A DNA stretch of 40,233 nt from Escherichia phage vB_EcoP-101118UKE1, in the sequence record MZ234021.1; one strand, written 5' to 3'. The first letter of the stretch is position 1. Every line of letters starts with the position of its first letter. Under the pieces are notes generated by a model, which was not told the DNA's origin, did no database searches, and saw only the letters and a list, made by a program, of their open reading frames with translations. A program made the translations under genes and the position numbers. This document shows, piece by piece, positions 6,159 to 22,837 of this stretch.

Positions 6159-6185
6159 AAGGTCATTACTATATGTAGTGGCCTT
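6159..6185 (+). promoter_or_regulatory. Putative RNase III processing hairpin (R18.5-like)
   Basis: AAGGTCAT 6159-6166 pairs with GTGGCCTT 6178-6185 in RNA (G-U wobble allowed), upstream of Rz gene. Confidence 0.45.
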
Positions 6186-6248
6186 TATGGTTAACACACA
6201 CTACGGGCGGCGACGCTACGTGGATTCTGAGAAATGAGGAGGGCAACT

Positions 6249-6686
6249 ATGCTCGAACTTTTACGTAAAGCAATCCCGTGGCTGGTTGCAGGACTCCTGT
6301 TCTGTTCTGGCTACTGGGTGGCAGACAATAAGTGGGAGGCGAAGGTAAACAATGAGTACATCACGAAACTTGAGGCACGAGAGAATCAACGGGCTGCTGT
6401 CCAAGGTGAAATCAACAAAGTGTCAGCCGAGTGGCAAGACAAGATGTCCGCGCTGGAAGGCTCTACTGATAGGATTATTGCTGACCTTAACCGCGATAAC
6501 AAGCGGCTGCGCGTCCGAGTCAACACCTCAGGTCTCACCGAGTCAGATGTCAGTCGATGCTTCCCTAATGGTAGAGTCGAACTACACCCAGAAACTTCTA
6601 AAAGTCTTATCCGATTAACTCAGGAGGCAGACCTTAAGGAGAAGGCGCTTCAGGACACAATAAGGAGGCTCCAAGGTGTTAAGTGA
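6249..6686 (+). CDS. Rz-like i-spanin (gp18.5-like)
   Basis: GAGGAGGG RBS 6237-6243 before ATG 6249 (first in-frame start in the ORF track is 6234); MLELLRKAIPWLVAGLLF N-terminal TM, DLNRDNKRLRVRV as in T7 gp18.5. Confidence 0.85.
   Translation: MLELLRKAIPWLVAGLLFCSGYWVADNKWEAKVNNEYITKLEARENQRAAVQGEINKVSAEWQDKMSALEGSTDRIIADLNRDNKRLRVRVNTSGLTESDVSRCFPNGRVELHPETSKSLIRLTQEADLKEKALQDTIRRLQGVK
6352..6618 (+). CDS. Rz1-like o-spanin lipoprotein (gp18.7-like), embedded in +1 frame of Rz gene
   Basis: 88-aa ORF inside the Rz gene; PRWKALLIGLLLTLTAITSGCASES signal/lipobox pattern matching T7 gp18.7. Confidence 0.7.
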   Translation: MSTSRNLRHERINGLLSKVKSTKCQPSGKTRCPRWKALLIGLLLTLTAITSGCASESTPQVSPSQMSVDASLMVESNYTQKLLKVLSD

Positions 6687-7113
6687 TTACTACAAAGTGG
6701 ACCCGGCTAGTCCATCCGGTCTGGTCTCCGTTAGGACTGGAAAGCCTGTGGGGACATTAAGTCGGATGGGATATTGGATAGTACAGACACGAAGTCTAGG
6801 CAGTAAGCGGGCCCATCGTGTGATATGGGAACTAACCAATGGTCCTATACCGCATGGTATGCAAATAGACCACATCGACAGGAACCCTAGCAATAATACC
6901 TTAAGTAACTTACGGCTCGTTACTGCCGCTGAAAACACTTGGAATACTGGTAGCCATTATGACTCTAAGACAGGAGTGAAGTGCGTTACCCGTCACCAGA
7001 ATGGTTATAGGATTCAGGTTAAACGCGGGAATGCCTATATGCGAACAACACGTCCCACTTTAGAGGAGGCTATCGCTGTCCGGGACCTAATGCTGGAGGG
7101 ACTATATGTCTAA
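6676..7113 (+). CDS. HNH homing endonuclease
   Basis: GTG start with AAGGAGG RBS 6662-6668; motif [20 protein letters not shown] (HNH) followed by AP2-like C-terminal region; overlaps Rz end and terminase start. Confidence 0.85.
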
Positions 7114-8872
7114 GAAAACACCCGCTGAAAGACAGGCAGAAATGGTCCAAAGGATGAGGGACGACTTCGTGTTCTTCATCTTCGTTCTCTGGAAAGCACT
7201 AAGTCTTCCGGTTCCAACCCGCTGCCAGATAGATATGTGTAAGAAGCTGGCTGCTGGGGATAATCGCCGCTTCATCCTTCAGGCGTTCCGTGGTATTGGC
7301 AAGTCGTTTTTGACCTGTGGCTTTGTGGTCTGGAAGCTATGGAATAACCCAGACTTGAAGTTCATGATTGTGTCGGCCTCAAAGGAGCGAGCCGATGCTA
7401 ACTCCATCTTCATCAAGCGAATCATCGACCTCATGCCTCAGCTTCAGGAACTCAAACCTAAGCAGGGACAGCGAGATGCGGTTATTAGCTTCGACGTGGG
7501 ACCTGCCAAGCCAGACCACTCACCTTCGGTTAAGTCCGTTGGTATCACTGGTCAGTTGACTGGTAGTCGTGCTGACACCCTGATTGCCGATGACGTGGAG
7601 GTTCCGAACAACTCAGCGACTCAGGCTGCACGAGACCGTCTATCAGAGCTTGTGAAAGAGTTCGACGCTATCCTGAAGCCGGGAGGTACGATCATCTATC
7701 TGGGTACTCCTCAGAACGAGATGACCCTGTACCGTGAGCTGGAAGGTCGTGGGTACACCACTACTATCTGGCCCGCTCGTTATCCACGCGACAGGAAGGA
7801 CTGGCAGTCTTACGGCGACCGTCTGGCTCCTATGCTTCAGGCAGAGCTGGAAGAGGACCCTGAGTCCTTCTACTGGCGTCCGACTGATGAAGTACGCTTC
7901 GATGATACGGACCTGAAGGAACGTGAGCTGTCCTACGGTAAAGCTGGCTTCGCTCTACAGTTCATGCTTAACCCGAACCTGAGTGATGCCGAGAAGTACC
8001 CTCTGAAGCTCCGTGACCTTATCGTAGCCGACTTGGACCCAGCGTCCAGCCCAATGGTCTACCAATGGTTGCCGAACCCTCAGAACAAGCGTGAGGACGT
8101 TCCTAACGTTGGACTCATGGGTGACTCGTACCACACGTATCAGACTGTAGGTTCTGCCTTCAGCTCATACACCCAGAAGATTCTGGTCATTGACCCTAGT
8201 GGTCGTGGTAAGGATGAAACTGGATATGTGGTACTGTACCAGCTCAACGGCTACATCTTCGCTATGGAAGTTGGTGGCATGCGTGGTGGTTATGAAGACT
8301 CTACGCTGGAAGCCTTGGCTAAGATTGGTCGTAAGTGGAGGGTCAACGAATACGTCATTGAGGGTAACTTCGGTGATGGTATGTACCTTGAGCTATTCAA
8401 GCCTGTAGCGGCCCGTATCCATCCTGCGGCTGTAACTGAAGTGAAGAGTAAGGGTCAGAAAGAACTACGCATCTGTGACGTTCTGGAGCCTATCATGGGG
8501 TCTCACAGACTTATCGTTAACGCTGCTGCTATCGTCCAAGACTACCAGACAGCCTCTGACAAGGATGGTGTTCGTAACCCTATCTACTCTCTATTCTATC
8601 AGATGACACGTATCTCTCGTGAGCGTGGAGCCTTGGCACACGATGACCGACTTGATGCGCTGGCTATCGGTGTACAGTTCTTCGTTGAGTCGATGGCTAA
8701 GGATGCCAACAAAGGCGAACGTGAAGTAACTGAGGAATGGCTGGAGGAACAGATGGAGAACCCACGGAAAGGCTTCGAGTCCATCCACACTGAGTTCTGG
8801 GACAATGGGGTCCGGGTAACTCACGATACGGACGACGAGCTTGGACTAGGGTCATACGTTACGTTCCACTAG
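7106..8872 (+). CDS. Terminase large subunit (gp19)
   Basis: 588 aa, near-colinear with T7 gp19 ([13 protein letters not shown] Walker [34 protein letters not shown]). Confidence 0.97.
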
Positions 8873-8881
8873 CTGAATGAA

Positions 8882-8930
8882 TAACTATAGGTGAAAGCTG
8901 CATGAATAAGCAGTTAGTAACCTATAGTTA
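8882..8930 (+). repeat. 11-bp perfect inverted repeat immediately after terminase gene
   Basis: TAACTATAGGT 8882-8892 and ACCTATAGTTA 8920-8930, 27-nt spacer. Confidence 0.6.
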
Positions 8931-20842: not shown

Positions 20843-20892
20843 GGACCGTGAGTCCTGTCCCTCTGTTCGCATTTGTGATTAAGGAGTGACCA

Positions 20893-22593
20893 ATGTCATA
20901 CGATGACCAAGACGACGAGAGTGTCTTTCTGTATCACACCCAGTGTCCAGACTGTGGGTCCTCTGATGCCAATGGTGTTTACTCAGATGGACACATGTAC
21001 TGCTTCGCCTGTGACCCTTCAGTCGCATGGAAGAAAGGAGACATGGAGTTGACCAAGGGATACACACCCTCAGGAGGTAGAAAGCAAGTGAGCAATCTGT
21101 TAACGTTCGGTGAGAACGCTGGACGATACGTCCCACTACCAGCCCGTAGTCTCAGCATGGAGATATGCAAGAAGTACAGCTACTGGGTGGGTAACATGGG
21201 GGGCAAGATGGTTCAGGTCGCTGATTATTACGACAGGTCCGGGACCAAGGTAGGGCAGAAAGTCCGAGACGCTGAGAAGAACTTCACGGCTATAGGTAGC
21301 GTCAAGTCTGACATGCTGTTCGGCTCTCAGCTCTGGAACGGTGGCAAGAAGATAGTCATCACCGAGGGTGAGATAGACGCTCTGTCTGTGGCTCAGGTGC
21401 AGGACGGGAAGTATCCTGTGGTCTCGCTTCCGTTAGGCTCCAAGTCTGCGAAGAAAGCGATGGCTGCTAACCTTGAGTACCTAGACCAGTTCGAAGAGAT
21501 AATCTTGATGTTCGACATGGATGAACCGGGTCGTCAGGCCATTGAGGATGCAGCTCCAGTATTACCAGCAGGTCGGGTTAAGGTAGCATTCATCAACGGG
21601 TACAAAGACGCCAACGCTGCGCTTCAGGCCAAGGACTTCAAGGCCATCACTGATGCAATCTGGAACGCTAAACCTTTCGTCCCGGCTGGTGTGGTATCAG
21701 CGGCAAGTCTGAAGGACCGCACACGAGAGGCAATGCTTAAGGCCGAGACTGAAGGTCTCATGTTCTCGTCATGCACAACACTCAACGCGATGACACTAGG
21801 TGCGCGAGCTGGTGAGCTTATCATGGTGACTTCAGGGTCAGGCATGGGTAAGTCCACCTTCGTCCGTCAGCTACTCTTAGAGTGGGGCAGAGGCGGTAAG
21901 CGTGTTGGTATGGCTATGCTTGAAGAGGCTGTAGAGGAAACAGTTCAGGACCTTATGGGTCTGGACAATAACGTCCGTCTACGCCAGAGCAAGGAACTGA
22001 AGCAAGCCATCTTAGAGGACGGACGGTTCGACGAATGGTATGACAAGCTGTTCGGAGACGATAAGTTCCACCTGTACGATTCGTTCGCAGAATCAGAGGA
22101 AGACACCTTGTTCGCTAAGTTGTCCTACATGGTGGATGGTCTCGACTGTGACGTAATACTGCTTGACCACATCTCAATCGTTGTGTCTGGCATGGAAGAT
22201 AACTCAGATGAACGTAAGACCATTGACCGCATCATGACTCGTCTCAAGAAGTTTGCGAAGACGAAGGGCGTGGTTGTCGTTGTCATATGTCACCTGAAGA
22301 ACCCAGAGAAAGGTAAATCGCATGAAGAAGGACGACCTGTTTCAATCACTGACCTACGTGGTTCTGGTGCTCTACGCCAACTATCTGATACTATCATCGC
22401 ACTTGAACGTAACCAGCAAGGTGATACTCCTAACGTTGTTCAGCTTCGTCTACTCAAGTGTCGCTTTACAGGTGATACTGGAGTGGCTGGACACCTTGAA
22501 TACAACAAAACGACAGGGTGGCTTGAACCGATTAGCTTCACTGGCAGCAGCGGAGAAGAGGATAGCGGCTCGTGGGAAAACAACGACTTCTAG
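20893..22593 (+). CDS. DNA primase/helicase (gp4)
   Basis: 566 aa; Zn-binding CPDCGSS...CFACD, helicase Walker [36 protein letters not shown]. Confidence 0.97.
21088..22593 (+). CDS. Possible helicase-only isoform (gp4B-like) from internal in-frame GTG
   Basis: AGGAGG at 21072-21077, 10 nt before in-frame GTG 21088 (codon 66), where T7 initiates gp4B at Met64. Confidence 0.35.
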
Positions 22594-22637
22594 CCTAGAG
22601 TCACGACTTGAAGAGTCACTTAAGAGGAGAGTAACTC

Positions 22638-22802
22638 ATGCTACGAAAACTTAAAGCTCGCTACCATCGGTTCATGTACAAATGGTGGAGCGATGAAGCA
22701 ACCTTCCTGTCCAACATTCTGGGAGACCAGAGGTTCGACTCTAAGGCATGGAAGAAAGCTAACCGTAAGTTCATGTACCACTTCTTACGTACAGACTTCT
22801 AG
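22638..22802 (+). CDS. Hypothetical small protein (54 aa)
   Basis: AGAGGAGAG RBS 22622-22630; not in ORF track. Confidence 0.5.
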   Translation: MLRKLKARYHRFMYKWWSDEATFLSNILGDQRFDSKAWKKANRKFMYHFLRTDF

Positions 22803-22812
22803 GTCTAGACTC

Positions 22813-22837
22813 AAGGTCATTCACATAGAGTGGCCTT
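22813..22837 (+). promoter_or_regulatory. Putative RNase III processing hairpin after gene 4 region
   Basis: AAGGTCAT 22813-22820 / GTGGCCTT 22830-22837. Confidence 0.45.

Follow-up and report, generated by a model that had tools for sequence, protein, structure and literature searches.

Escherichia coli encodes a class 1 RNase III (rnc). The standard substrate of the E. coli enzyme, R1.1 RNA of the Nicholson laboratory, originates between genes 1 and 1.1 of phage T7. This hairpin of 60 nt has an asymmetric internal loop of 4/5 nt (PMC6121014), and both in vivo and in vitro the enzyme breaks just one of its phosphodiesters (PMC6121014; PMC4858673). The sequence of its apical loop is not critical for cleavage (PMC1540722). 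The window studied here, the whole 40,233-bp sequence of Escherichia phage vB_EcoP-101118UKE1 (record MZ234021.1), is a complete T7-like podophage genome in circular permutation, with gene 16 as the first gene. Its closest relatives are the Escherichia phages vB_EcoP-22664BS1 and LM33_P1 of the genus Kayfunavirus (K1F group), with 97% identity across 15 kb. The window contains seven related intergenic hairpins. From their homology in sequence and structure, these are very probably RNase III processing signals, orthologous or paralogous to the T7 sites of the R0.3/R0.5/R1 type and to R1.1, R4.7, and R18.5.

Cellular E. coli substrates, such as the rRNA operon stems and the rnc and pnp leaders, are processed by the same enzyme and likewise need about two turns of double-stranded RNA. 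Proximal and distal box determinants are common to cellular and phage substrates (PMC1540722, PMC6212723). The cellular substrates are mostly cut on both strands, leaving 2-nt 3' overhangs. In contrast, the phage sites are cut on one strand, by way of the internal loop, and have a family-specific primary sequence.

Homology of the hairpins to the T7 signals

The original prediction listed seven intergenic hairpins with the arms AGGTCAT and GTGGCCT, or a variant of these, pairing with G-U wobbles. All seven are present. A search for AGGTCAT-N(4-30)-GTGGCCT gives five exact matches, exclusively on the + strand (6160-6184, 11326-11347, 11683-11706, 15728-15752, and 22814-22836), against 0.01 expected from 100 dinucleotide-preserving shuffles of the window. 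Two variants are read from the sequence, with arms AGGTCGT..GCGGCCT at 10595 and AGGGCCTT..AAGGCCCT at 10273. Each site lies on the transcribed + strand within a gap between open reading frames (ORFs), and the wobbles correspond to two conserved U.G pairs in the upper stem (GGUCAU/GUGGCC).

T7 has identical arms AGGTCAT..GTGGCCT in two places, 3115-3134, a short way upstream of gene 1, and 5862-5883, in the gap that separates genes 1 and 1.1. We trained a covariance model, R1, on seven T7 sites alone, chosen at cleavage coordinates from the literature (Dunn & Studier 1983), and searched the window with filters off. The model returns exactly the seven sites, all on the + strand, with 33.8-53.7 bits and E-values from 2.1e-10 to 1.5e-5; the next match has E=6.7. 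In phage phiYeO3-12 (AJ251805), the same model gives eight matches with E<0.01, which are eight of the ten stem-loops annotated there as 'putative RNase III site', and no others. A broader model, R2, recovers eight T7 loci, including the promoter-enclosing R6.5, and no canonical site in the window beyond the seven; its best sub-threshold match (E 2.1) is an R6.5-like locus described below. The eight T7 loci would be R0.3, R0.5, R1, R1.1, R1.3, R4.7, R6.5, and R18.5 of Dunn & Studier 1983.

The window sites can be aligned with the seven T7 sites column by column, and 10 of the 16 consensus pairs show compensatory changes. With T7 R0.3, R0.5, R1, R1.1, R1.3, R4.7, and R18.5 they have in common the consensus ACUCAAGGUCNN..NGUGGCCUU(U/C)AUGAUU, the succession of lower stem, 4-5 nt asymmetric loop and upper stem, the U.G wobbles, and the strand. 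The parallels drawn earlier to R1.1, R4.7, R18.5, and an R0.3-type site before ocr hold as synteny, since the intergenic positions match in all four cases, and sites are annotated at these positions in phiYeO3-12 too. The two phages also differ: the window has four early sites upstream of gene 1 whereas T7 has three, it lacks sites directly ahead of gene 1 and of the ligase gene, and three of its early sites carry an invariant 19-nt 3' box that is not found in T7.

A consensus phage promoter lies directly upstream of the window's RNA polymerase gene (12383-12469) and is conserved in K1F, whereas the T7 record annotates none there. Its transcript begins with GGACUCAAGGUCU, the 5' arm of the RNase III family, and no matching 3' arm follows. 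This gene 1 leader looks like a decayed R1 site.

The original prediction made its interpretation depend on the stems forming in the transcript. On the + strand, all seven sites fold into a lower stem, an asymmetric internal loop, an upper stem, and an apical loop, with z scores of -2.5 to -5.6. On the - strand, where the conserved U.G wobbles turn into C.A mismatches, the folds of six sites are for this reason no better than those of shuffled sequence. Apart from the remaining site (early site 1, below), the hairpins are stable solely in the sense RNA, through these wobbles. The RNAalifold consensus of the window and T7 sites has 7 + 9 pairs, with four unpaired columns on the 5' side and five on the 3' side, and the minimum free energy folds of the single sites agree with this 4/5-nt internal-loop architecture. 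With flanks of 100-200 nt (a transcript context of 250-450 nt), the upper stems persist with a pair probability of at least 0.95, and the lower stems reach at least 0.70 at five of the seven sites.

Base pairing is kept by compensatory substitutions across homologues. Matches to the covariance model across 100 IMG/VR loci, many of them at sites outside the search pattern, gave 103 distinct sequences. In this alignment, which is fitted to the model, 96.6% of cells are paired, 14 of the 16 pairs have changed on both sides, and 244 cells are compensatory. None of 500 shuffles scores as high, and alignments slid out of register are 27-50% paired. An independent scan of IMG/VR with only the flanks fixed (ACTCAAGG..CCTTTATGAT) gives the same picture. 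It identified more than 120 loci, nearly all on contigs of ~40 kb, and most of the 68 distinct interiors form stems of 4-10 bp on the sense strand, with almost none on the reverse complement.

The seven sites and the conserved early box

The cuts predicted for each site are T7 positions (Dunn & Studier 1983) transferred by alignment; the T7 positions themselves fall right behind GGCCUUUAU in the T7 sequence. The R4.7-like site (22799..22853, +) lies after gene 4 and a 54-aa ORF and before an HNH ORF and the DNA polymerase gene. It is the top match of model R1 (53.7 bits, E 2.1e-10), with a predicted cut after 22840 and a K1F orthologue at 12849-12903. Its arms (ACUCAAGGUCAUUC / GAGUGGCCUUUAUGAUU) are identical to those of T7 R1.1, and the differences are confined to the apical loop and lower stem. 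The R18.5-like site (6145..6201, +) is located between gene 18 (stop 6147) and Rz (start 6234). It scores 50.0 bits with R1 (E 1.7e-9) and 63.3 bits with R2, and folds with -22.3 kcal/mol and z scores of -4.4 on the + strand and -0.7 on the - strand. The predicted cut follows 6188 (GGCCUUUAU^GG), and the K1F orthologue is at 36441-36497. The R1.1-like site (15713..15769, +), upstream of the gene 1.1 homologue, begins at +1 of the phage promoter at 15704-15717, the same layout as phi1.1 followed by R1.1 in phiYeO3-12. It scores 43.9 bits with R1 (E 5.1e-8), has a predicted cut after 15756 (GGCCUUCAU^GA), and corresponds to K1F 5566-5622.

The other four sites belong to the early region. Early site 1 (10258..10319, +) is upstream of an 84-aa early gene and carries the AGGGCCUU/AAGGCCCU variant on a base of CAGG..CCUG. 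It scores 33.8 bits with R1 (E 1.5e-5), has a z score of -5.6, and is the sole site of the seven that folds on the - strand too; the predicted cut is after 10306 (CCCUGACU^GAUAG) and the K1F orthologue is at 707-768. Early site 2 (10581..10636, +), directly upstream of the ocr (gene 0.3) homologue, is the positional equivalent of T7 R0.3, with 43.3 bits for R1 (E 6.9e-8), z scores of -4.5 on + and -1.0 on -, a predicted cut after 10623, and a K1F orthologue at 1030-1085. Early site 3 (11311..11364, +), upstream of a 75-aa moron, scores 39.7 bits with R1 (E 5.3e-7) and has a predicted cut after 11351. It is the one site absent from K1F, where six of the seven are present. Early site 4 (11668..11723, +) has a 5' arm, GAGUGAUAGAC, identical to that of T7 R0.5; it scores 34.3 bits with R1 (E 1.1e-5) and has a predicted cut after 11710. 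Its K1F orthologue (1766-1821) shows pair-preserving changes from GGUCAU to GGCCGU.

The original prediction had also described, in three early copies, a conserved box ending ~15-30 nt before the next start codon. The box (CTGACTGATAGTCAYTAAC) does occur in exactly three copies, against 0.01 expected, at 10301..10319 (CTGACTGATAGTCACTAAC), 10618-10636, and 11346-11364 on the + strand, and the distances from its end to the likely start codons are 16, 28, and 16 nt. For the first early gene we took the second ATG (10336), which is annotated in K1F and has a Shine-Dalgarno sequence, as the start; the first ATG is 7 nt past the box. The box is not a separate element, as had been assumed, but part of the hairpin of an R1-like subclass. 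The closing pair belongs to it, as do the 3' sides of both the internal loop (5 nt, ACUGA) and the lower stem (UAGUCAY); a UAAC tail completes it. The 5' partners in the lower stem vary by copy (GACUA, AGUGAUUA, AGUGAC), and every one pairs with the box. In these three sites the upper stem is closed by C-G (CAGG..CCUG), like that of T7 R1. There are thus two loop subclasses, the early ACUA / ACUGA and the type common to most T7 sites, ACUC / (U/C)AUGA.

Two other roles for the box were considered and rejected. It could form a protective 5'-terminal mini-hairpin (GACU-GAU-AGUC) on the processed mRNA, but the predicted cut, ACU^GAUAG, lies within that mini-hairpin. The box does place stop codons in all three frames (TGA, TGA/TAG, TAA), but the late-type sites are without this property, which is thus no feature of the family.

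There are six + strand copies of the nonamer GACTGATAG, five of them inside the sites described here (10303, 10605, 10620, 11348, and 11691). Three of these copies lie in internal loops, as paralogous copies of the box, and two in the apical loops of the sites at 10595 and 11682. The K1F copy of the apical loop at 10595 differs (GACTGCTAG). The repetition of the nonamer may be a trace of duplication.

The surroundings of early site 3 differ from K1F by an insertion. K1F 354-1804 corresponds to window 9900-11347, and a second alignment pairs K1F 1765-1843 with window 11667-11744. The single K1F site after gene 0.35 is accordingly found twice in the window, around an insertion (11348-11666) of the box and the 75-aa gene, with the breakpoint at ..GTGGCCT|. 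The 75-aa gene (phrog_32657; 11381-11608) has 88.5% nucleotide identity with Kagunavirus siphophages, for example MZ234010, and the homology begins at the last base of the box (11364). The Kagunavirus copy has its own sigma-70-like promoter and no hairpin. Judged by these alignments, early site 3 is a duplicated copy created around the insertion of the 75-aa gene.

Proposed processing and competing explanations

The hairpins would act in polycistronic phage transcripts, for which the host RNA polymerase is responsible at first and the phage polymerase later. Each element would fold in four parts: a lower stem of 5-8 bp, an asymmetric internal loop of 4 nt and 5 nt, an upper stem of 9-12 bp with two U.G wobbles, and an apical loop. 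The two stems would stack into about two helical turns and be bound by the host RNase III, a double-strand-specific endoribonuclease. The enzyme would then cut one strand only, three nucleotides into the 3' side of the loop (..GGCCUUUAU^GAU.. or ..GGCCUGACU^GAUAG..), because the internal loop would distort the helix and keep both strands from engaging the two catalytic sites. Cleavage of a single strand at internal loops and a stabilizing effect of 3' hairpins have been described (PMC1540722; PMC3867540). The upstream mRNA would end in the stable upper hairpin and be shielded from 3' exonucleases, and the downstream cistron would be released with a 5' leader of 20-45 nt carrying its ribosome-binding site. 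Cleavage in this phage, its exact positions, and its effects on mRNA stability and translation are inferred here by homology.

Several observations weigh against this interpretation. The lower stems of early site 3 (11325) and the R1.1-like site (15727) are weak in the long transcript context (P 0.2-0.4). The T7 cleavage coordinates behind the predicted cuts are those of Dunn & Studier 1983; the GenBank records of T7 (NC_001604, V01146) show no RNase III features, nor does that of phiA1122. An Rfam scan of the whole window at gathering thresholds gave no family for these elements; this is because a curated model is absent and does not argue against them. T7 does not depend on RNase III for growth (PMC6938266), and given this the sites may be dispensable. 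The 0.7 kinase stimulates RNase III in T7 (PMC4858673), and this phage differs from T7 in having no recognizable gene 0.7 kinase.

The independence of T7 growth from RNase III (PMC6938266) would also be compatible with hairpins that are structural punctuation only, serving to stabilize 3' ends, to decouple ribosomes, or to bind RNase III with no cut being made. R1.1 variants with a changed bulge or internal loop can be bound by the enzyme and yet stay intact (PMC1540722), and the internal loop of the early subclass (ACUA/ACUGA) differs from the R1.1 loop tested in T7. We nevertheless consider such a role improbable, as the helix arms are identical or nearly identical to those of cleaved T7 substrates, the loops have the same 4/5-nt geometry, and the strong conservation of the loop sequence across genera is easier to explain by recognition by the enzyme. 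The early-type loop, moreover, resembles that of T7 R1 (CAGG..CCUGAAU), which is reported to be cleaved. A transcription terminator or attenuator, for the host or the phage RNA polymerase, could likewise look like a GC-containing hairpin followed by a short U run (GGCCUUUAU). This reading is ruled out by a terminator scan, which finds none of the seven sites, and by position. The U tract is 3 nt only, and four of the sites are preceded by the early promoters and followed by the RNA polymerase gene, a place at which a terminator would halt the infection programme; the T7 homologues are processing sites, and TE and Tphi are annotated separately.

The elements could instead act as DNA, as recombination hot spots, module boundaries, or inverted repeats bound by a protein, the RNA fold being incidental. 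Mosaic breakpoints coincide with the sites, the insertion of the 75-aa gene is flanked by a duplicated site, and two of the further candidates below (R13-like and R6.5-like) are palindromes that fold equally well on both strands. This is very improbable for the seven sites, however, which all have one orientation and, early site 1 apart, do not fold on the antisense strand. Their U.G wobbles and the covariation between G-U, A-U, and G-C maintain RNA pairing, not DNA palindromy. Use in recombination is compatible with a function in RNA, and we treat the coincidence of sites and breakpoints as a by-product of repeated conserved sequence. A related and rather doubtful proposal is that the hairpins double as portable 'cistron adaptors' and as recombination junctions for the capture and shuffling of early genes (morons). 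If it were true, the invariant 19-nt box would be kept because it supplies newly acquired genes with a ready-made processed 5' leader.

Homology in sequence and structure to the signals of the T7 group thus supports the original prediction of RNase III processing signals. As a class these are the textbook T7 signals, and the finding opens no new question. They occur here in Kayfunavirus, where the public records examined, those of K1F and the closest relative in GenBank, do not annotate these sites, and our literature search found no publication linking Kayfunavirus with RNase III. The architecture of the T7 processing signals, with its U.G wobbles and 4/5 loop, is maintained in this genus despite a different promoter specificity and the lack of a 0.7 kinase. 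A covariance model of this kind could mark RNase III processing signals across Studiervirinae genomes. For therapeutic phages specific to the K1 capsule, it would help to predict where mature mRNAs end and which 5' leaders they carry.

Further candidate sites and gene neighborhood

All the sites listed by the original prediction exist, but its list was incomplete, leaving out R3.8-like, R13-like, and possibly R6.5-like candidates. Like T7, the phage would have ten sites with these three. phiYeO3-12 and other T3/T7-group genomes also have about ten; among these, R3.8 lies where the phi3.8 transcript starts, and R6.5 and R13 surround promoters. The window differs from phiYeO3-12 in genus and promoter specificity.

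The R3.8-like candidate (20837..20870, +) is a hairpin of 10 bp before gene 4, followed by a conserved CCCUCUGUUCGCAU. It sits at +1 of the promoter at 20825, and the transcript made from there begins with GGGAUGGGACCGUGAGUCCUGUCCCUCUGUUCGCAU. The locus can be aligned with T7 GGGAGACCACAGCGGUUUCCCUUUGUUCGCAUU and with the stem-loop that phiYeO3-12 annotates as 'putative RNase III site R3.8'; the homology to R3.8 of these two phages (GGGAGACC..GGUUUCCCUUUGUUCGCA) is clear and includes CCCUYUGUUCGCA. Relatives of the window show compensatory stem changes from GGGAC/GUCCU to GAGAC/GUCUU, and also GACCAC..GGUUGUC. The z score is -2.6 on the + strand and -1.4 on the - strand. In one IMG/VR relative (L166), ARAGORN identifies a tRNA-Thr(CGT) gene upstream of gene 4 (308-386), at the place that the promoter and the R3.8-like hairpin occupy in the window.

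The R13-like candidate (35800..35866, +) has a 12-bp stem, AAGGGCCUAUAG/CUAUAGGCCCUU, and a lower stem, UAACU/GGUUA, which enclose the promoter upstream of gene 13. R13 of T7 and phiYeO3-12 likewise encloses phi13. In the window, however, the stem lies outside the promoter core and does not use the promoter's GGGAGA as its 3' arm, as it does in phiYeO3-12. The stem is conserved and invariant in 20 relatives, including some with a different promoter sequence. It has a z score of -3.0 and folds on the - strand too, giving no strand-specific signal. In a weaker candidate, the R6.5-like locus (27165..27274, +), the promoter of gene 6.5 lies within a long stem with interruptions (AGUCUA..AUAGUCAUAU / AUAUGACUAU..UAGACU). 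Its position and its layout, with the promoter in the loop, are those of R6.5 in T7 and phiYeO3-12. The z score is -4.5 on the + strand but -5.6 on the - strand, R2 gives 12.1 bits (E 2.1), and the relatives show no informative variation. Both loci are candidates by position alone, with no strand asymmetry.

In three IMG/VR relatives (L140, L143, and L147), the promoter upstream of gene 13 reads ..ACCCTCACTATAGGGA or ..AACACTCACTATAGGGA in place of ..AACTATCACTATAGGGA. These variant promoters of close relatives sit inside the same conserved GGCCTATAG..CTATAGGCC stem, which suggests swaps of RNA polymerase/promoter specificity within the group.

The gene order of the window is that of T7: gp16, the tail fibre gene, holin, gene 18, Rz, an HNH ORF, terminase, and the genome ends. 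Then follow host-type promoters, among them TTGACA-18-TAGTAT at 10114-10143, small early genes including the ocr homologue (assigned by phrog_2568), the RNA polymerase gene (12470-15151), and genes 1.1, 1.2, and 1.3. Gene 4 (20893-22593), the DNA polymerase gene, and the structural genes complete the genome. Phage promoters of the type ACTATCACTATAGG number 11, all on the + strand.

The HNH homing-endonuclease ORF between the R4.7-like site and the DNA polymerase gene (22866-23267) takes over a ribosome-binding site and initial codons (ATGTTTGA) which in K1F are those of gene 5. The HNH ORF between Rz and the large terminase gene (6676-7113) has no counterpart in the closest relative, MZ234009. 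In the leader of the ocr homologue (10640-10664) there is TTAACTTTG, conserved in K1F, which resembles the 'epsilon' translational enhancer of T7 gene 10, UUAACUUUA. Short direct repeats, (A)CCTACAGTC / CCATAGGTC, are found at 9690-9870, near the presumed left genome end and upstream of the host-type promoters.

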